From: a bacterium
Lineage (GTDB): Bacteria; Patescibacteriota; Minisyncoccia; Phycocordibacterales; Zambryskibacteraceae
Direction of reading: 5' to 3'
Length of the DNA stretch: 64,000 nucleotides
NCBI GenBank assembly: GCA_030649135.1
Contig: JAUSGI010000005.1
Location: 5,754-69,753, forward strand
The notes below the pieces were generated by a model that was not told where the DNA came from, ran no database searches, and saw only the letters and a program-made list of their open reading frames with translations. Each line of letters opens with the position of its first letter. The first letter of the stretch is position 1. Of this stretch, positions 1 through 52,549 are shown piece after piece. The position numbers and the translations under genes were made by a program.

Positions 1-270
1 ACCTCCTCCGGCATCCTCTCCGGCTTGACCACGAGGATCAGGCTGGGCACCATACCCCTTTCCGGGATAGGAGCCTGCGCCATCACCCACTCGACCTTGG
101 AATCCGACATGCGGTTTTCCACCGCAGCCAGACGCCCAAAGCAAGTGGTGCAGGCGCACCCCAACCACATCACCTCGAACGCGACGAGATTGCTCTCGAC
201 GCGACCGAAGCGAGGGTTGGACCAGCCGTCCACCCGCAGGCGAACGGTTCGGTTGGCCATGATTTCACCT
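1..270 (-). CDS. hypothetical protein, 5'-partial in window (continues past position 1)
   Basis: Open minus-strand frame from ATG at 268-270 to the window edge, preceded by a strong SD (GAAAGGAGGTG). Peptide MANRTVRLRVDGWSNPRFG...MWLGCACTTCFG. Not in the ORF track because it has no stop inside the window. Confidence 0.4.
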
Positions 271-382
271 CCTTTCATGGCGAGTTATTCACCCGGATAC
301 CAACTGATAGCGCCTTCTCGCTAATCAGTCAGAAATCCAAGGCTACATTAACGGCTAGGTCGCCCCAATCTTAAAAGAACAG

Positions 383-453
383 CTGTTTCGCCCTTTTGGG
401 CACATCAGTCGGGATACGCATCCCGAGACAGCAGGGACTAGTTGATAGTCCCT
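383..453 (+). repeat. copy A of a repeated about 70-nt hairpin-rich motif (CTGTTTC...CATCAG-YCGGGATACRCATCCCG-GAKACAG..CAGGG)
   Basis: Aligns at roughly 75-80% identity with 1549-1620. Contains two stem-loops (GGGATACGCATCCC and AGGGACTAgttgaTAGTCCCT). Confidence 0.5.
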
Positions 454-509
454 ATGGCGGTTTCATCCGCCCCTCCTTATCCCCAACCTCCCCTGTGCGG
501 GTGAGGATG

Positions 510-821
510 TTACGGGGTCGAATCACCTTTCCCGGCATACTTACTCCGGTACTCAGCGATGAGCGCGTCCGCCTCCTCAGTCGAGGAGACGACCTGCCGG
601 AGGCTAACCCTCCGGTTGAGCGTGCCGAACCGGCACGCCACGCGCGGATTGGCAGCTTCGCCAATCCGAAGGACGAGCAGGTACCCGTCCTTCGTCTTGC
701 GCAAGGAATGAGACATCTCCTCGTCGCAAAACTGGCGCACGACTACGCCGTCCGCGCTGGGAGCGGAATTGCACCCAGCGAAGAGCACGACCAGACAAAG
801 AACAGCGGCAAACTTGATCAT
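510..821 (-). CDS. small lipoprotein (signal peptide with lipobox LFAGC)
   Basis: N-terminus MIKFAAVLCLVVLFAGCNS is a typical lipoprotein signal. GC-rich. Confidence 0.5.
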   Translation of the reverse strand: MIKFAAVLCLVVLFAGCNSAPSADGVVVRQFCDEEMSHSLRKTKDGYLLVLRIGEAANPRVACRFGTLNRRVSLRQVVSSTEEADALIAEYRSKYAGKGDSTP

Positions 822-857
822 GTCTTATTCTCCTGCGGCCTCGCCGCTTTCGAACAT

Positions 858-890
858 TAAAGAACTTGAGCGAACCATTTCGCTCTTCTG
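858..890. repeat. 33-bp palindrome-containing motif AAAGAACTTGAGCGAAccATTTCGCTCTTCTGAA, copy 1
   Basis: Near-identical second copy at 1236-1268. Each lies 25-40 bp upstream of a minus-strand start codon (821 and 1210). Inner inverted repeat GAGCGAA/TTCGCTC. Confidence 0.55.
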
Positions 891-1042
891 AAAATCCAAT
901 TCCATTAGATTTTCGGAACAGCGGGCGAAGCATTGCACTTCGCCGGGTTTTTTAACGTGGTTCACTCCACGGAGCTGTGGTCTCGCCTCGGGATTATGAT
1001 TTGCCCGAGATCCCCACTCATGTTTGCTCAGGCACCTTCGAC

Positions 1043-1210
1043 TTACTTTCCAAAGCGATACAGCAGCTTTAGGAAGTAAGGAAAGGCCGCGAAGGACTGC
1101 GCACCTTTGAAGGCGAGGTTGCATCGCTTGCATACCATCACAAGCTGCCCGTCATCCGGGTCCTCGACCCCCTCAAGGAGTTTGTCCTTACACTCCGGAC
1201 AGTCCGTCAT
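1043..1210 (-). CDS. small zinc-ribbon protein (55 aa, CxxC...CxxC)
   Basis: ATG at 1208-1210 (minus) preceded by GGAGGTGG SD. Peptide MTDCPECKDKLLEGVEDPDDGQLVMVCKRCNLAFKG... Below the ORF-track size cut-off. Confidence 0.45.
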   Translation of the reverse strand: MTDCPECKDKLLEGVEDPDDGQLVMVCKRCNLAFKGAQSFAAFPYFLKLLYRFGK

Positions 1211-1235
1211 CTCTTACCACCTCCTTCTTCCAAAG

Positions 1236-1268
1236 AACTTGAGCGAATTATTTCGCTCTTCTGAAGAA
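1236..1268. repeat. 33-bp palindrome-containing motif, copy 2
   Basis: AAAGAACTTGAGCGAAttATTTCGCTCTTCTGAA. Same position relative to the downstream start as copy 1. Confidence 0.55.
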
Positions 1269-1548
1269 CCAAATTTCAATTTTTAGTTCCTCGGAAGAGG
1301 GGGCTAGAGAAGTTCTCTCGCCCCGGCGTAGTCTGGAGTCCCGGTTTCCCTATGCCGGGTTATCTCCAGTTAAGGACCCACGCAAGGTCCCGCGCCACAG
1401 TCGAGGCTTCCCTCGAACGTCTGTGACGACTCGCCGCAACAACCATTGCGGCAGCAGGGGCTGAGATCATCAGCCAACCGCCTGCACGGCCGGTGGACTC
1501 TGGCGCGTTTTGGGGTACGCACCGCTCCACCATGGGAAGAACAAAACC

Positions 1549-1620
1549 CTGTTTCATCCTTTCGGAATCATCAGCCCGGATACACATCCGGATACAGGAA
1601 CCAGGGTTTAGCATTCCTGG
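1549..1620 (+). repeat. copy B of the repeated hairpin-rich motif
   Basis: CTGTTTCATCCTTTCGGAATCATCAGCCCGGATACACATCCGGATACAGGAACCAGGG aligns with copy A. Hairpins CCGGATACACATCCGG and CCAGGgtttagcattCCTGG. Confidence 0.5.
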
Positions 1621-2153
1621 TAGCGGCTCTGCTTCCGCGCGGCTCACCACTCTAAGTAGGTGACACTTCTCTGTTTGTTATCGCGGGACAGAGAGCCGCG
1701 TATGCATTTTCTGTTCCCAGGACTGCGATAACACCCCGGCTAACCCTAAGTTAGCAGTACCCGGAGGGAGAAGATTACTTCCTTCTCCTCCAACGATCGG
1801 TCCGTCCTCCAGAAGGGAAAGAAATCGCTCGAAGCGACTCCCTCCTCTCGGATTTCGGACGACCGTCGGGGCTGTAGCCAGCCCGGGCGAGAATCATAGT
1901 GGCTTGCACCACCAGATTCTTCTTACCTTTTTCCACTCACTCACCTCCTTTCAGGGAACCTTGTCAGCGTCCGATTACAATCTTACTCCATGTGATATTT
2001 ATTGTCAACTCATTTTGACACTTTACTACAACTGGTCGTAAAAATATGGCTAAATAAGACCATAGTTTGAAATATGAGTTTAATTTGGTCTGACTAAACT
2101 AGTATTTAAAGGGTTGATATTTTTGACCAATAATGGTGTTTAGTCATTTACGT

Positions 2154-2182
2154 TTGACAAATAAAATTAGGGGGTATATACT
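2154..2182 (+). promoter_or_regulatory. sigma70-like promoter TTGACA-17-TATACT
   Basis: -35 TTGACA at 2154-2159, -10 TATACT at 2177-2182. It drives a short transcript that ends at the 2378-2412 hairpin. Confidence 0.45.
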
Positions 2183-2377
2183 GGTGACAGAAACTCCTCG
2201 AAAGGAGAGTGCATGAACGACTAGGGGATGGGGAAGTCCGGGGCGTAGCGCCCCGGACATGACCCAGAAATGCGGTTAACAGAAAAGGAGATTGGGATGG
2301 CCGACTGATGTCGTACCTAGGGTAGCTTCAAAAACCAGGAGGGGGTTATGCTGTTAGCAATGACCCCACCCACAAAT

Positions 2378-2412
2378 GCCGTGGCGGCTTCACCGCCACG
2401 GCATCTTCATTT
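2378..2412. terminator. intrinsic terminator-like hairpin GCCGTGGCGG-cttca-CCGCCACGGC followed by a T-rich run
   Basis: Perfect 10-bp stem. It sits where the plus-strand leader unit converges with the 3' end of the minus-strand TrmB-like gene. Confidence 0.55.
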
Positions 2413-3147
2413 ATGATCAAAGATGTATTTGATAAGGCTTTTAAGAGTTTCTGCAAACTCCTGACTTTTTACAGATATTCCTGAAAGTCTTTTCCCGAGT
2501 ATGGCTATTTTCACACGATCGCCATAAATCGTTATGTCACTTGTAATCGGATACTTTTCATGATCTATTTTAATTCTTTCTCCAGTGCTATCAGACGGTT
2601 TATCGATAATTTTCGAGGTGTAAATTGATTTCGACCTGATTCCTCTGGAAATCCTTTCCTCTCGCATATTCGTCGTTTCTTTTTCAGTAAATAGATCTTT
2701 TACTAAATCTAGTGGATATACCATATAGACTGGTTCGTCATCGAGTTTTTTTACAAAAGTATCATCGTTGGAACTCAAGACCCCTTCCTTACCATCGAAA
2801 AACTGGACTATAGGTTTTCCTACTCGCTCTCCTTGGAGACCTCTCAATTGGGGGATGATGATATCTAAGCTTTTTTTGTTTTCCTCTAGAAGGTGAATTT
2901 GTCTCTCAACAAAGAAACCGAGTTTCTCCGGTGGTTCGGCTAGGTAATAAGTCTTTTTACCTATATTGGTCTCACTTACAAGACCCTTTTTAGCCAAAGA
3001 GTCGAGAATGACATAAGTTGTTGGTCTTTTAACTTTCGCTTTTTGTGAGATCTCTGATATTTGAGCCTTGTCGAAAGAGAGGAGGGCGACATAGACTGCC
3101 GCTTCCTTATCGCTCAATCCTATATCCCTGAGATATTTCTCGAACAT
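2407..3147 (-). CDS. TrmB-family transcriptional regulator
   Basis: N-terminal winged-HTH pattern MFEKYLRDIGLSDKEAAVYVALLSF...EISQKAKVKRPTTYVILDSLAKKGLV, as in TrmB regulators. Confidence 0.6.
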   Translation of the reverse strand: MFEKYLRDIGLSDKEAAVYVALLSFDKAQISEISQKAKVKRPTTYVILDSLAKKGLVSETNIGKKTYYLAEPPEKLGFFVERQIHLLEENKKSLDIIIPQLRGLQGERVGKPIVQFFDGKEGVLSSNDDTFVKKLDDEPVYMVYPLDLVKDLFTEKETTNMREERISRGIRSKSIYTSKIIDKPSDSTGERIKIDHEKYPITSDITIYGDRVKIAILGKRLSGISVKSQEFAETLKSLIKYIFDHK

Positions 3148-3180
3148 ATATTAAATGATAGCATGACAGAAACTCTGCTG

Positions 3181-4119
3181 TTACTTCCTCCTTGAATGAA
3201 ACCTTTTGTGGGTATCGCGAAGCGCCTTGTCGGTGACGTGGGTATATATTTGAGTTGTCGAAATATTGGCGTGGCCGAGAAGCATTTGGACGCTACGAAG
3301 GTCGGCGCCATTGCTTAAAAGATCAGTAGCAAAGCTGTGACGAATAACGTGAGGTGTCACTTTTTTTGAAATGCCGGCTTTTATCGCATAATGCTTCACA
3401 ATTCTTTCTATCGAGCGGCGAGTGAGAGGAAGGGAGTCTTTGGTTTTAGTGTTTTTCCCTACCTGAACAAAGAGGGCATCATTCATATCCTTGCGAGCTT
3501 TGAGATATTTGGATACGGCGTTTCTCGCTTCATCAGAAACAAAGACTACCCGCACCTTACTGCCTTTACCCCTGATAGAAAACTCCCCGACAGAAAGATC
3601 AGTATCATTATTTAACGAGCAGAGTTCGGATACACGAAGCCCTGTGGAGAAAAGCATTTCAAGGATAGCTTTGTCGCGAAGTTCTTTAATTCCATCGCCT
3701 TTGGGCATCTCAAGTAGGCGAGTGAGTTCGGCAGGGGAGATGAGATCAAGAGAGCGTTCTCCAACTTTAGCCAGTTCAATGCGTTCTGCTGGCAGACTTG
3801 TAATTTCTTGCCGAGCCAGATACTTGAGAAAAGAGCGTAAGGCAATCAGATAATAATTCTGCGTCTTCTTCGACATGGTTTCACCGGTTTGTCGGTTATT
3901 GCCGGTCGACTGGCGGTTAAGCCACATCCTAAATTCTCTCACCACTTCGTCACTAATATCCTTCGGATTTTTTACTTCGGTATGCTTAAGAAAAACGGAA
4001 AGGTAGTGGTCATAGTTCTCAATAGTCTTGAGTGCCCGGCCCTTTTCGATCTCGGTATATTCCAGAAATCCTCTCTTTAATCGCTCTAGTTCACTAACAT
4101 TCCCCATATTGTGCGACAT
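3181..4119 (-). CDS. tyrosine site-specific recombinase (XerC/XerD / phage-integrase family)
   Basis: Catalytic-domain motifs LRVSELCSL, HVIRHSFATDLL and LLGHANISTTQIYTHV (R-H-R-Y signature). Confidence 0.85.
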   Translation of the reverse strand: MSHNMGNVSELERLKRGFLEYTEIEKGRALKTIENYDHYLSVFLKHTEVKNPKDISDEVVREFRMWLNRQSTGNNRQTGETMSKKTQNYYLIALRSFLKYLARQEITSLPAERIELAKVGERSLDLISPAELTRLLEMPKGDGIKELRDKAILEMLFSTGLRVSELCSLNNDTDLSVGEFSIRGKGSKVRVVFVSDEARNAVSKYLKARKDMNDALFVQVGKNTKTKDSLPLTRRSIERIVKHYAIKAGISKKVTPHVIRHSFATDLLSNGADLRSVQMLLGHANISTTQIYTHVTDKALRDTHKRFHSRRK

Positions 4120-4198
4120 TATAACACGGACGCATTTGACTTGATTTTCTGTTCAAATAGTTATAGGTTTCTTAGCAGAATTGAGCACAGACAGGAGA

Positions 4199-5441: not shown

Positions 5442-6308
5442 GTGATGAATCCGGAAGAAACTCCTTTAAAACAAATTCGCACCTTTCAAGGAGATGTAGC
5501 GGAAGCACTCCAGAAACAGCAAGGCTCGCTCGTCTCGATTCAACAAGCGGAACATTTAAGAACAAGGAACCGTCTTTCGGCTACCGATACCGCCACAGAA
5601 CAACCTAACAAAAGAAAGGAATTCGTCGTGCTCCTTTTAGGAAGCTTTGTTCTCCTCGCCCTAAGTGTGGGCGGGGGCTGGTATGCTTACAACGAATATG
5701 TGAGAAGGTCCGCCACTCCGATTACAACCGCACCGGCAAACAGATTTATATCGGCCAATACCGAAGCCAATATAATGCTTGCGGCCACTTCACGCGATAC
5801 TCTTTTTCAGACTCTTTCCGATGCCATCAAGGGCATGGCCTCCGGGGAACTTAGACATGTCGTCTTGCGAAAGGGTTTGACGAAAGAAACGGCTTATCTG
5901 TTTCCCACAAGCGAATTTTTGGTAGCACTCGAGAGCCGGGCTCCCGGCGGGCTGGTACGAGCTTTCGACCCGCTTTTCATGTTTGGAGCTTCCGGAAAAA
6001 GTGCCTTCTTAATAATTAAACTGGCCTCTTTTGAAAATGCCTTTGCGGGCATGCTCGCTTGGGAGAAAAATATGAGTCAAGATATCGGACCTCTATTTGC
6101 CACCGCCACGCTCTTGAAAGATATGCCGCCCGAAGCCGTCTTCACGGACCTGATAGACAAAAACAAGGACGTTCGGGTCCTTGCGCTCGGCAAGGAGCCA
6201 GTTCTCCTTTACTCATTTGTCGACAACAATATGCTTATCATCACGGATAATATCGAGACTTTAAGAACTCTCGTAGACCGCCTGACGCGAGAAAAACTTT
6301 CCCGTTAG
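5442..6308 (+). CDS. hypothetical membrane-anchored protein
   Basis: Single predicted TM segment (FVVLLLGSFVLLALSVGGGWYAY). No recognisable domain. Confidence 0.5.
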   Translation: MMNPEETPLKQIRTFQGDVAEALQKQQGSLVSIQQAEHLRTRNRLSATDTATEQPNKRKEFVVLLLGSFVLLALSVGGGWYAYNEYVRRSATPITTAPANRFISANTEANIMLAATSRDTLFQTLSDAIKGMASGELRHVVLRKGLTKETAYLFPTSEFLVALESRAPGGLVRAFDPLFMFGASGKSAFLIIKLASFENAFAGMLAWEKNMSQDIGPLFATATLLKDMPPEAVFTDLIDKNKDVRVLALGKEPVLLYSFVDNNMLIITDNIETLRTLVDRLTREKLSR

Positions 6309-11266: not shown

Positions 11267-11920
11267 ATGAGAAACGTAAAACTAGTTGAAAACGAACTTT
11301 ATCACGTGATGAACCGAGGTGTAGATAAAAGGTCAATCTTCCGGGACAAAAACGACCTGGACAGATTTTTTGAGGGAATGCAGAAACTAAATGTGCTGAC
11401 TCCAACTGGGCACTTAGCTCGTCGACTCCCGGAGTCGACAGACAAGAAGCTTGTTAAGTTCATAGCGTATGATTTGAACCCAAACCACTTTCATTTTATC
11501 TTGGAACAGGCTGCAGAAAGAGGCATAGAACGGCTAATGAATCGGCTCTGCATATCGCATTCAAAATATTTTAATCTTAAGTATCATAGGATGGGCACTT
11601 TATTCCAAGGTAGATTCAAAGCAATTCATGTTGATACGAACGAATACCTGCTTCACTTAAGCGCTTATGTGAATCTAAACGATGTAGCACACACCCGCAA
11701 CAGTAAACCGGGACTGTCTAAATCAAGTTGGGTAGAATATATTGGCGAGTCAAGAGAAGAATTTTGCGATAAGTCAATAATACTTGATCAATTTAAAAAT
11801 GGAGGAGAATATAAGAGGTTCGCTGAAAGCACTTTGCGGGACATTATTGATCGAAAGATTTTGCTAGCAGAACTAGAAGACGAATTGATGTCGATTCCCG
11901 GAGTCGACAAGGCGATATGA
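11267..11920 (+). CDS. REP-associated tyrosine transposase (RAYT, IS200/IS605-like Y1 HuH transposase)
   Basis: YHVMNRGVDKRSIF, HuH motif NHFHFILE, LFQGRFKAIHVD, and the catalytic-Tyr region YLLHLSAYVNLN. Flanked by REP-like hairpins. Confidence 0.8.
   Translation: MRNVKLVENELYHVMNRGVDKRSIFRDKNDLDRFFEGMQKLNVLTPTGHLARRLPESTDKKLVKFIAYDLNPNHFHFILEQAAERGIERLMNRLCISHSKYFNLKYHRMGTLFQGRFKAIHVDTNEYLLHLSAYVNLNDVAHTRNSKPGLSKSSWVEYIGESREEFCDKSIILDQFKNGGEYKRFAESTLRDIIDRKILLAELEDELMSIPGVDKAI
11421..11439. repeat. REP-like palindrome copy 2 (GTCGACTCCCGGAGTCGAC) inside the RAYT coding sequence
   Basis: Encodes RRLPESTD within a segment that looks like an extra insertion relative to other Y1 transposases. 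Confidence 0.65.
11890..11908. repeat. REP-like palindrome copy 3 (GTCGATTCCCGGAGTCGAC) at the RAYT 3' end
   Basis: Overlaps the last RAYT codons, just before the ksgA start. Confidence 0.65.
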
Positions 11921-52072: not shown

Positions 52073-52318
52073 TTGTTTATGTTTGCAACCTACATTCTTA
52101 AAAGCAAAACCACCAACAGATATTACATTGGGTATACAAGTAACGTAGGAAAAAGAATCATTTATCACAATACCGGCAGGAATATTTCTACGAGAAGCGG
52201 TATACCTTGGAGCCTTGTGTATTCAGAATCATTTGAAACTCGAGCTGAAGCATGGAAAAGAGAACACCAGATAAAGTCATATAAAAGTGGAGAAGCTTTT
52301 AAAAAATTGATACAGTAA
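52073..52318 (+). CDS. GIY-YIG nuclease family protein (short)
   Basis: YILKSKTTNRYYIGYTSNVGKRIIYHN matches the GIY-YIG motif. Confidence 0.85.
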   Translation: MFMFATYILKSKTTNRYYIGYTSNVGKRIIYHNTGRNISTRSGIPWSLVYSESFETRAEAWKREHQIKSYKSGEAFKKLIQ

Positions 52319-52325
52319 GGTATCT

Positions 52326-52412
52326 GGAGGGGTGGCAGAGAGGTCTATCGCACCGCACTTGAAATGCGGCGTGGGGTAAATCCCACCGTGAGTTCGAATC
52401 TCACCCCCTCCG
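52326..52412 (+). tRNA. tRNA-Ser (anticodon TGA), type II with a long variable arm
   Basis: Acceptor GGAGGGG/CCCCTCC, anticodon stem CCGCA/TGCGG with loop CTTGAAA, variable arm GTGGG..CCCAC, T-loop TTCGAAT. Confidence 0.85.
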
Positions 52413-52549
52413 CCTTCGCCTCGCCGAAGCCCGCAAGGGCGTAGGCGGGCTTCGCTCGGCTTCGGCGTGACAAAGTCCGCCAGGTTGCATCGGAGCGACC
52501 CGAGTGCCTTAACGTGTCCTTTGGTCGAATCTGATATACTTTTTTTATT

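Follow-up and report, generated by a model that had tools for sequence, protein, structure and literature searches.

Organization of the Locus

The sequence analyzed here, referred to as the window, is a stretch of 64,000 nucleotides (nt) covering positions 5,754 to 69,753 of contig JAUSGI010000005.1 (assembly GCA_030649135.1), from a bacterium of the family Zambryskibacteraceae in the phylum Patescibacteriota. Its first 2 kb hold an island of small genes and structured RNA elements, in which two type III hammerhead ribozymes, HHR1 and HHR2, and two copies of a second, hairpin-based module lie on the minus strand. Directly upstream of the island, and in the same orientation, stands a gene for a TrmB-family winged-helix regulator (2407..3147, minus strand; Pfam). 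Read from TrmB along the minus strand, the locus comprises a promoter, a small open reading frame (ORF), a structured module at 1740..1625, HHR2, a further structured stretch, two cargo ORFs, HHR1, and a gene for a protein of 106 amino acids (aa), an order that follows the one seen in related loci. The original prediction, made from the sequence letters, had described the first 2 kb as GC-rich, and the G+C content is indeed 54–57% in positions 1–2000, against about 40–50% in the rest of the window. Every credible feature of these 2 kb is on the minus strand.

Two Type III Hammerhead Ribozymes

The same prediction had singled out two copies of about 70 nt, at 383–453 and 1549–1620, as a structured RNA motif, and Rfam settled their nature. 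A scan of the window at permissive thresholds identified HHR1 (434..380, minus strand) as a full-length type III hammerhead (RF00008 of clan CL00010, 42.7 bits, E 2.4e-7), and a second, focused scan identified HHR2 (1600..1546, minus strand) as another (30.7 bits, E 3.7e-5), with the family model matching both from end to end. The minus strand carries both repeats, and there the core reads CUGAUGA...GAAAC. The two ribozymes share one layout, consisting of stem III, the cleavage-site nucleotide H17, a stem I of 7 base pairs (bp) closed by G(C/U)GU, the core strand CUGAUG(U/A), a 4-bp stem II closed by (A/G)AAA, GAAAC, and stem III again; loops close stems I and II and stem III is open, which is the type III topology. 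Over the 55-nt core the copies agree at 39 positions (71%), all stems are intact in both, and three pairs, one per stem, have changed on both sides. A covariance comparison of the two copies gives 91.7% of cells paired, against 31–50% when the partners are slid. There is very little doubt that these repeats are hammerheads of a real family.

At the level of single positions, HHR2 conforms to the conserved strand C3-U4-G5-A6-N7-G8-A9 with CUGAUGA, and HHR1 reads CUGAUGU, a change of A9 to U that is weighed below. Both copies keep G12-A13-A14 (GAAAC...), U16.1 pairs with A15.1, and H17 is not G, being C in HHR1 and A in HHR2; cleavage is predicted at 427/426 and 1593/1592, respectively. The 10.1–11.1 pair is G-C in HHR1 and U·U in HHR2. 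This mispair recurs in 19 of 122 members of the family described in the next section, among the matches listed, and of all mispairs at 10.1/11.1 it is the one that supports most activity (PMC3088659). Furthermore, an intergenic hammerhead present in 65 PaP3-like Pseudomonas phages matches HHR2 with 91% identity over 45 nt and also has U·U at this place; the PaP3 hammerhead was tested by Perreault et al. in 2011 and is listed among the active core variants (PMC3088659). Since the U·U variant is listed as active and the likeness to the PaP3-like ribozyme is close, HHR2 is probably a ribozyme of the active type, a core variant documented elsewhere, and to judge by its sequence it can reasonably be expected to cleave.

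The matching hairpins that had been predicted are also present, one before each copy. One, GGGACUA-N5-UAGUCCC (452..434, minus strand; recognized by sequence and fold), abuts stem III of HHR1, and the other, CCAGG-N10-CCUGG (1620..1601, minus strand), abuts stem III of HHR2, where it would form the 3' end structure of the upstream cleavage product. On the 3' side of each ribozyme lies a short box, GUUCUU after HHR2 (1537..1542, minus strand) and GUUCUUU after HHR1 (374..380, minus strand), the latter being the point at which homology with the 5' untranslated region (UTR) of the closest relative begins.

A Large Environmental Family

A covariance model built from HHR1 and HHR2, named R1, detected nothing beyond these two when run on the window and on 34 related loci, and an earlier, too specific hammerhead pattern found nothing in the viral scan. 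A DNA pattern fixing only the stem I tip and the core was run on metagenomes and on IMG/VR; it matched at least 120 metagenome contigs and 34 IMG/VR viral contigs, and R1 gave 133 and 69 matches in the loci fetched by the pattern. Stem I of the family ends in GGAUGUGUAUCC, followed by CUGAUGA, a 4-bp stem II closed by NAAA, and GAAAC. Among the matches listed, which are likewise the scope of the alignment figures and of the hairpin and box counts that follow, the consensus is nnnCUGU-H-nnnGGAUGUGUAUCCnnn-CUGAUGA-Gnnc-nAAA-gnnC-GAAAC-Agnnn. In the family alignment 90.5% of cells are paired, against 32–45% when slid, there are 489 double-change cells, and none of 500 shuffles reaches the observed value.

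This is a large, mainly phage-borne environmental hammerhead family. Seventeen unmistakable members in other loci score between 28.8 and 48.5 bits against RF00008, sixteen of them below the gathering score of 48.5 and one exactly on it; the Rfam threshold therefore under-covers the subfamily, and standard annotation misses these hammerheads. The wider consequence is that the type III threshold of RF00008 passes over most of a large environmental subfamily, where gene callers then yield spurious peptides. Mechanical ORFs or public gene calls run through hammerheads in the window (1360–1650, minus strand) and in L122 (4640–4969), L118 (7397–7939), and L124 (7896–8246). The mistranslated ribozyme appears there as a recurring peptide, ...CIRMCIRADDSERMKQ..., MCIPTDDSERMKRK, or CLRMCIRTDEAERQKQ, an annotation artefact that could serve as a protein-level flag.

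The surroundings of the window copies recur in the family. Of 102 distinct members, 55 have a hairpin whose end lies no more than 4 nt from the ribozyme, as do both window copies, and a GUUCUU box follows 9 of 103 family hammerheads, all nine in loci resembling the candidate phyla radiation (CPR), against 0–2 in control windows. Same-strand arrays are common, with six copies in L079 and four each in L116, L122, L125, and L111, and their spacing is gene-sized (214–3740 nt). The array of L079, with six same-strand hammerheads in 3.3 kb (1–3326), is the densest among the loci examined; each of its ribozymes has the same conserved hairpin, GGCACGGUCACACCGAGUGAUCGUGCC, before it and a short ORF after it.

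A Second Structured Module and a Shared Box

The second repeat of the island had been described as a 33-bp palindromic motif. The motif exists and is longer than that, with 41 nt at 859–899 and 1232–1272 that are 90% identical; these are two matches in 64 kb, where none is expected from 100 shuffles. Its palindrome is the hairpin P2, GAGCGAA-N4-UUCGCUC, which forms part of a larger arrangement. In copy 2, hairpin A (GGGGCGAGAG...CUCUAGCCCC; 1300..1324, minus strand) is followed by the hairpin P1 (1254..1301, minus strand; 8 + 7 bp with a C/A mismatch, −20.4 kcal/mol), by P2 (GAGCGAA-AUAA-UUCGCUC, 1258..1241), and by AAG and a GUUCUUU box (1238..1232), the last three spanning 1232..1258 on the minus strand. 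Copy 1 has the same order, with hairpin A as GGCGAAG-N7-CUUCGCC (924..944, minus strand), P1 at 881..923 (minus strand; −19.2 kcal/mol), and P2 (885..868), AAG, and the box (865..859) within 859..885 on the minus strand.

The closest relative of the locus, L032, encodes a 106-aa protein 86% identical to that of the window and has three more full copies of the motif in the same orientation. Alignment with these copies shows a variable hairpin A, a P1 of 43–48 nt, P2, and then AAG-GUUCUUUAA, with the 5' strand of P2 overlapping the 3' strand of P1. P1 consists of an 8-bp and a 7-bp helix around a conserved C/A mismatch (−19 to −24 kcal/mol). In six copies 96.7% of its positions are paired, 10 of its 15 pairs have changed on both sides, and several pairs are G·U; the P1 covariance model scores the sense strand 9–24 bits above the antisense strand. 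Compensatory and G·U pairing, together with this strand bias, mark the repeat as an RNA element and not a DNA operator. Its sequence and pairing suggest that it probably acts as an RNA-level processing, stability, or attenuation signal.

Neither this motif nor the hammerhead is unique to the locus, since both have copies elsewhere. The module itself is narrowly distributed: covariance and profile searches of about 100 hammerhead loci found no copies beyond the window, L032, and a group represented by L005 and L022. A P2-plus-box pattern gave 19 matches in 185,579 species genomes, in unrelated taxa and at about the chance number as estimated, with none in the CPR. Three viral matches to this pattern were rejected, reaching only E 0.05–1.1 against the motif profile.

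The comparison with L032 also reveals that the two kinds of element can occupy equivalent positions. The two loci are about 90% identical over a stretch that begins with the GUUCUUU box and takes in the 5' UTR of the 106-aa gene, and upstream they are unrelated; directly upstream of the shared box and 5' UTR lies HHR1 in the window and a copy of the hairpin module in L032. Each of the five full motif copies and each of the two hammerheads of the window has GUUCUUU or GUUCUU after it. Because the box comes after both ribozymes and both motif copies, four transcript boundaries of the window carry a structured element plus box, the element being either a ribozyme or a hairpin. The GUUCUUU box also occurs about 17 nt after the promoter −10 box in L002 and L022. 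Any role proposed for it, be it transcriptional pausing at a U-rich site, a tract resembling a terminator, or ribosome standby, would be a guess.

A second kind of boundary element was observed in relatives, namely a hairpin GCCGAG...CUCGGC followed by CCCGCCAAAGUUU-loop-AAAUUUUGGCGGG, with several per island in the same orientation. It is found in L034 (2536–2592, 3160–3220, and 3450–3510), L033 (1337–1397 and 1965–2025), L032 (40–100), and L002 (4795–4880 and 5460–5510). Integron attC sites, which the cassette-like small ORFs had brought to mind, were rejected, as GTTCTTT has pyrimidines where the R' box GTTRRRY (R'' RYYYAAC) needs purines; the neighboring recombinase, at 128 bits against 265, stays far under the cut-offs for integron integrases.

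The Island Transcript

The island has a candidate sigma-70 promoter on the minus strand, TTGACA-17-TAAGAT (1980..2008; 10 of 12 hexamer matches), with an inferred start near 1973; in relatives the corresponding position is taken by TTGACA-17-TATAAT. A small ORF of 53 codons with a GTG start (1936..1775, minus strand) opens the transcript as its first gene and is preceded by a strong ribosome-binding site, AAAGGAGGTGA. A homologue with the motif DGRPxSER lies upstream of the first hammerhead in L111 and L154, with 45% identity over 42 aa (E 2e-8 against L111 and L154 alone, 3e-6 against all loci compared), and this ORF is probably real, as far as its sequence tells. The view that 1300–1980 has no convincing ORF is not sustained at this point, and holds for the remainder, which is ORF-poor and by far more stably folded than shuffled sequence. 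For the stretch 1975..1601 the z value is −5.9, and the GC-rich non-coding stretch of about 240 nt at 1304..1545 (minus strand), for which strong structure is predicted, folds with z = −4.3, none of 200 shuffles folding as well; the latter has no match in related loci.

Within the first of these stretches lies a structured RNA module common to other Parcubacteria islands (1625..1740, minus strand; recognized by similarity and fold), 77% identical over 117 nt to L034 3040–3155 and 84% over 43 nt to L033 1263–1305. Apart from HHR2 itself, no Rfam family covers any part of 1300–1980. The failure to recognize RNase P, transfer-messenger RNA (tmRNA), or signal recognition particle (SRP) RNA by eye agrees with a wider Rfam scan of the window and 17 related loci, which for RNase P, tmRNA, SRP, 6S, other self-cleaving ribozymes, and large ornate RNAs returned only hammerheads, tRNAs, and obvious noise at E <= 0.1–1.

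Downstream of HHR2 are the two cargo genes, a zinc-ribbon-like ORF of 55 aa (1043..1210, minus strand), whose weak zinc-ribbon Pfam matches are all below curated cut-offs, and an orphan lipoprotein ORF of 103 aa with the lipobox LFAGC (510..821, minus strand), whose only match among 5.8 billion proteins is itself. The four small proteins of the island have nothing in NCBIfam or Pfam beyond these sub-threshold matches. HHR1 is followed by the 5' UTR of the 106-aa gene (261..379, minus strand; about 90% identical to L032) and the 5' part of the conserved 106-aa ORF (1..260, minus strand), which extends 61 nt past the window start.

The 106-aa protein is completed in the Logan contig L001 (1471–1791), which is 100% identical to window 1730..1; the organism is also carried by Logan run SRR13727527, from a groundwater community. 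Homologues of the protein are named Giovannonibacteria, Parcubacteria group, and Paceibacterota. The protein has the motifs VDGWSNxRFG, CxCxxC, and LSDLLGLQISEVA, and it occurs only in Parcubacteria-type genomes. The AlphaFold model is confident (mean predicted local distance difference test, pLDDT, 91.8), no Pfam or NCBIfam family was found, and no fold in the PDB matches (best E 0.15). About 85 nt after the stop of the gene (L001, to 1877) are conserved as DNA, with covarying hairpins ...ACCGGGGCCG-N-CGGCCUGGCAACAGAAG. The next gene in L001 begins MFDLKVINSVLGELEEVRGIPR, similar to the N-terminus of the Pfam-confirmed NusA of L099; in L099 NusA lies downstream, as the window appears to have it.

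Several further observations concern the promoter region. A palindrome, ATATGGCT-N6/7-AG(A/C)CCATA(G/T), is conserved at 2044–2067 of the window and at about 3707–3728 of L022, where the AT-rich promoter region separating TrmB from the island cannot otherwise be aligned, and is a candidate TrmB operator. On the plus strand, at 2154–2410, a strong promoter (TTGACA-17-TATACT, 11 of 12 matches) faces a G+C-rich stretch of about 215 nt, a candidate small RNA that ends at a bidirectional terminator (2376–2404) convergent with TrmB; a similar arrangement, with a divergent promoter and a terminated RNA encoded opposite to the island, is seen in L022. An invertible promoter segment, bounded by inverted repeats at 1945–1957 and 2195–2207 and flipped by the neighboring recombinase, was rejected, because the apparent inverted similarity is the palindrome ATATGGCT...AGCCATAT, relatives have divergent promoters, and the recombinase is Xer-type.

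Related Loci and the TrmB Neighborhood

About 30 related loci share the gene order KsgA, TrmB, an AT-rich region with the TTGACA-17-TATAAT promoter, a G+C-rich stretch, a 105-aa gene, and UvrD. The G+C-rich, ORF-poor stretch is 1–1.6 kb long and reaches 57–59% in 500-nt windows, against about 30–45% in its flanks. The contents of these islands vary. L033 (874–1305) and L034 (2683–3082) have in common a module of about 430 nt, 75% identical, which in one locus lies on the other side of the 105-aa gene from its place in the other; the islands are therefore mosaics of shuffled modules. An ORF of 44 codons within this module (MRDLLEALRGSRLIA...) shows substitutions of a coding-like pattern. In two hammerhead-free islands, L022 (about 3960–4150) and L002 (about 3940–4110), a tRNA-like T-arm, GGUUCGAUUCC, stands in a long hairpin with a tmRNA-like 5' part, GUGAUUCUGGU. 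A tmRNA, which the T-arm had suggested, was discarded, since ARAGORN and Rfam call neither a tRNA nor a tmRNA there.

The TrmB protein of the window is closest (44–55% identity) to proteins of L111, L062, L099, and L169, loci that had been fetched only through the hammerhead pattern. TrmB genes adjoin hammerheads, with Pfam confirmation, in six independent loci (L099, L111, L062, L121, L118, and L169); the gene is upstream and in the same orientation in L099, L111, and L062, as in the window, and divergent in L118 and L121. As regards an integrated element, the G+C content of the island is foreign, but the neighboring recombinase is of the Xer type and 64–65% conserved in L118 and L169; being of this type and conserved in other loci, it does not speak for a prophage. 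The ribozyme itself is the only match to phage DNA.

Elsewhere in the window, a 217-aa ORF (11267–11920, plus strand) with a weak match to IS200-like Y1 transposases (E 6e-8) lies between UvrD and KsgA, where relatives have nothing. A sub-threshold Rfam match to the sX4 small RNA (52311–52475, plus strand; 39.9 against 70 bits) overlaps tRNA-Ser (52326–52412), and several "Plastid" UTR matches are antisense to tRNAs; all of these look like tRNA-driven false positives.

A Transcript Probably Cut into Units

The explanation that best accounts for the locus as a whole, and that we regard as probable, is that the hammerheads lie in one minus-strand transcript of a mosaic island and cut polycistronic RNA. 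A transcript from the sigma-70-type promoter, downstream of the TrmB gene, would carry both ribozymes, each of which would fold during transcription and cut after H17. Three pieces would result: a 5' RNA of about 380 nt with the small conserved ORF, a 1,166-nt middle RNA with the zinc-ribbon and lipoprotein ORFs, and a 3' RNA with the conserved 106-aa ORF. Upstream products would end in a hairpin and a 2',3'-cyclic phosphate, and downstream products would start with a 5'-OH and a folded ribozyme; as separate pieces, the units could have their stability and expression uncoupled. The second, lineage-restricted module (hairpin A, P1, the overlapping P2, and the GUUCUUU box) would punctuate the other two unit boundaries, most likely as a protein-dependent processing, stability, or attenuation signal. 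Cleavage in vivo is something we infer. As to its purpose, the anatomy and the published gene-flanking arrays (PMC3088659) incline us towards the separation of polycistronic units with hairpin-protected 3' ends and ribozyme-capped 5'-OH ends.

Several findings weigh against this account. Both HHR1 and HHR2, at 42.7 and 30.7 bits, fall below the RF00008 gathering threshold of 48.5. HHR1 has U at A9, a position that is A in all 122 relatives and that had been left free in the search pattern. Core changes usually abolish hammerhead activity (PMC3088659), and on the strength of this unique substitution HHR1 is probably weak or dead, best filed as a hammerhead-derived element of doubtful activity; that it cleaves usefully seems unlikely from its sequence, and the boundary ahead of the 106-aa gene may for the same reason not be cut. 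In its minimum free energy fold HHR2 favors an extended stem of different pairing, AAACCCUG/CAGGGUUU, in competition with stem III. None of the roughly 30 related TrmB/105-aa loci has a hammerhead (R1 search, and Rfam at E <= 1 on five representatives), from which it follows that the island can do without the ribozymes. A search of 1–14 kb for phage Pfam domains gave none and no phage genes were recognized close by, so that the locus does not repeat the prophage setting of the literature. The L005/L022 group lacks P2, yet keeps hairpin A, P1, and the box, and the function assigned to the hairpin module is one that we purely infer.

Four alternatives have to be set against the cutting of one transcript into units. 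The one that survives best, itself unlikely, concerns only the module and makes P1/P2 a transcription attenuator, with P2 and UUCUUU as a weak intrinsic terminator and P1 as the competing anti-terminator, metering read-through into the cargo genes. A consensus scan flagged P2 and its tail as terminator-like, the overlap of the P1 3' strand with the P2 5' strand suits such a switch, the change of GAGCG to AAGCG in L32c is compensated in both partners, and hairpin A overlaps P1 in L032, giving a 1:2 / 2:3 / 3:4 layout. However, AAG interrupts the U-tract with three non-U bases, P2 has little stability beside P1 (about −9 to −12 as against −19 to −24 kcal/mol), P1 and the GUUCUUU box persist in the L022 group without P2, and the same box follows hammerheads, which need no terminator.

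It is improbable that the hammerheads are decaying remnants of a phage or mobile element that was once inserted here, now idle and with the repeat kept by descent only. Such a history would suit the A9 change of HHR1, the relatives that lack hammerheads at this locus, the orphan cargo genes, and the compositionally foreign island. Against it stand the intact stems of both copies with three compensatory pairs between them, the core of HHR2, which is a documented active variant, and the upstream hairpins and downstream GUUCUU boxes, which are kept at both copies.

Still less probable is a unit delimited by the two hammerheads, excised and ligated into a circular RNA of 1,166 nt, viroid- or retrozyme-like or a circular mRNA. 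The two ribozymes are indeed of type III and on the same strand, the loop signature of the family also occurs in IMG/VR records of 366 and 377 nt that look like plant virusoid RNAs, and a hammerhead pair in L065 is 1,158 nt apart. Spliced or circular products were raised as a possibility in PMC3088659, but that work sought both and found none. Moreover, there are no long flanking direct repeats, only the 55–70-nt cores being alike (71%), family members lie anywhere between 214 and 3740 nt apart, stem III of a chimeric junction ribozyme would be reduced to about 4 bp, and the core of HHR1 is mutated.

The weakest alternative, a DNA operator or promoter shared by two small genes, such as a TrmB binding site, has in its favor a perfect 7-bp inverted repeat upstream of two ORFs and a dimeric winged-helix regulator encoded next door, and is very unlikely indeed, as the palindrome is only the small arm of a module whose partners include G·U pairs workable only in RNA and extend into the 15-bp P1, all five full copies are on the favored sense strand, two of the three L032 copies have no nearby ORF after them, no sigma-70-like hexamers occur in the motif, a better candidate exists in the palindrome ATATGGCT-N-AGCCATAT, and the supposedly equal distance to the two genes is not equal, the gap between the repeat and the start codon being 38 nt for the ATG at 821 and 22 nt for that at 1210.

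Within the account of a transcript cut into units, a bolder generalization may be ventured as a long shot. The locus might represent an undescribed kind in Parcubacteria, with TrmB beside the promoter of a GC-rich, hypervariable, structured multi-unit RNA whose boundaries are interchangeably a hammerhead or P1/P2, each then followed by GUUCUUU as a "unit start" box. The module would be functionally equivalent to a ribozyme, and the island a cassette system for small orphan genes and structured RNAs. If this were true, the hairpin module would be a new signal for RNA processing or else, though this is less likely, a self-cleaving motif of a new kind. The pair formed by the window and L032 offers a natural comparison, with the same 5' UTR behind a ribozyme in one and a plain hairpin module in the other, in which the effect of the cut on the downstream gene is directly testable.

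Comparison with Known Systems

The nearest known relative of HHR2 is the hammerhead of PaP3-like (45-kb) Pseudomonas aeruginosa phages, which is likewise of type III, with a GGAUGUGU(A/G)UCC stem I tip, U10.1·U11.1, and a UUCC-NAAA-GGAU stem II. That ribozyme is an unannotated single copy near the end of a lytic phage genome with a proteobacterial host, whereas the window has two copies in a Parcubacteria chromosome, adjoining TrmB.

In its arrangement, the locus recalls clustered same-strand hammerheads that flank genes in prophages of Agrobacterium tumefaciens, Azorhizobium caulinodans, and Clostridium scindens (PMC3088659). Three such gene-flanking arrays cleaved in vitro, and the proposed role is the cutting of long transcripts into gene-length mRNAs (PMC3088659). 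HHR2 and HHR1 bracket genes in the same sense, both on the minus strand, 1,166 nt apart, and with two ORFs between them; in the prophage clusters, too, several same-strand ribozymes enclose one or a few small genes of varying identity. A marR winged-helix regulator and a tyrosine recombinase lie near the prophage clusters, and a TrmB winged-helix regulator and an Xer-type recombinase near those of the window. Unlike the prophage clusters, the locus has no recognized phage genes, its recombinase is Xer-type, its island is chromosomal and conserved in the lineage, and one of its cores is mutated.

Type III hammerheads of plant virusoids, the satellite RNAs of sobemoviruses, act in the rolling-circle replication of small circular RNAs. 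Two tiny "viral genomes" of IMG/VR, L187 (366 nt) and L189 (377 nt), contain a hammerhead that belongs to the subfamily of the window ribozymes, with the stem I tip GGAUGUGUAUCC, CUGAUGA, a GUCC-GAAA-GGAC stem II, and GAAAC. Judging by length, the two records may be the virusoids of velvet tobacco mottle and of Solanum nodiflorum mottle. The peripheral loops of the window ribozymes presumably make the same tertiary contact as virusoid-type hammerheads. Unlike those of virusoids, the window ribozymes are DNA-encoded and 1,166 nt apart, with protein-coding cargo between them.

For the hairpin module, the early transcript of phage T7 offers an analogy, in that RNase III processing hairpins stand between its genes, imperfect and of about 15–20 bp, with an internal mismatch and leaving hairpin-protected ends. 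P1 is similarly an imperfect intergenic hairpin with an internal mismatch between cistrons of one transcript. The likeness does not extend to sequence, and P1 differs further in the alternative hairpin that overlaps it and in the conserved GUUCUUU box.

The ribozyme class, its subfamily with PaP3-like phages and virusoid-like loops, and the gene-flanking arrangement are already known. That hammerheads can bracket genes has been known since 2011, and what they do in bacteria has yet to be settled. A full-text search of the literature found no paper joining hammerheads with the CPR or Parcubacteria. What the locus adds to these systems, with no earlier report found, is the host group, the recurrent TrmB neighbor, the conserved chromosomal island, and the interchange of ribozyme and hairpin module before one conserved 5' UTR. 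It places hammerheads in the chromosomal, lineage-conserved setting of an ultra-small CPR bacterium and ties them, in the window and six other loci, to one family of neighboring regulators.

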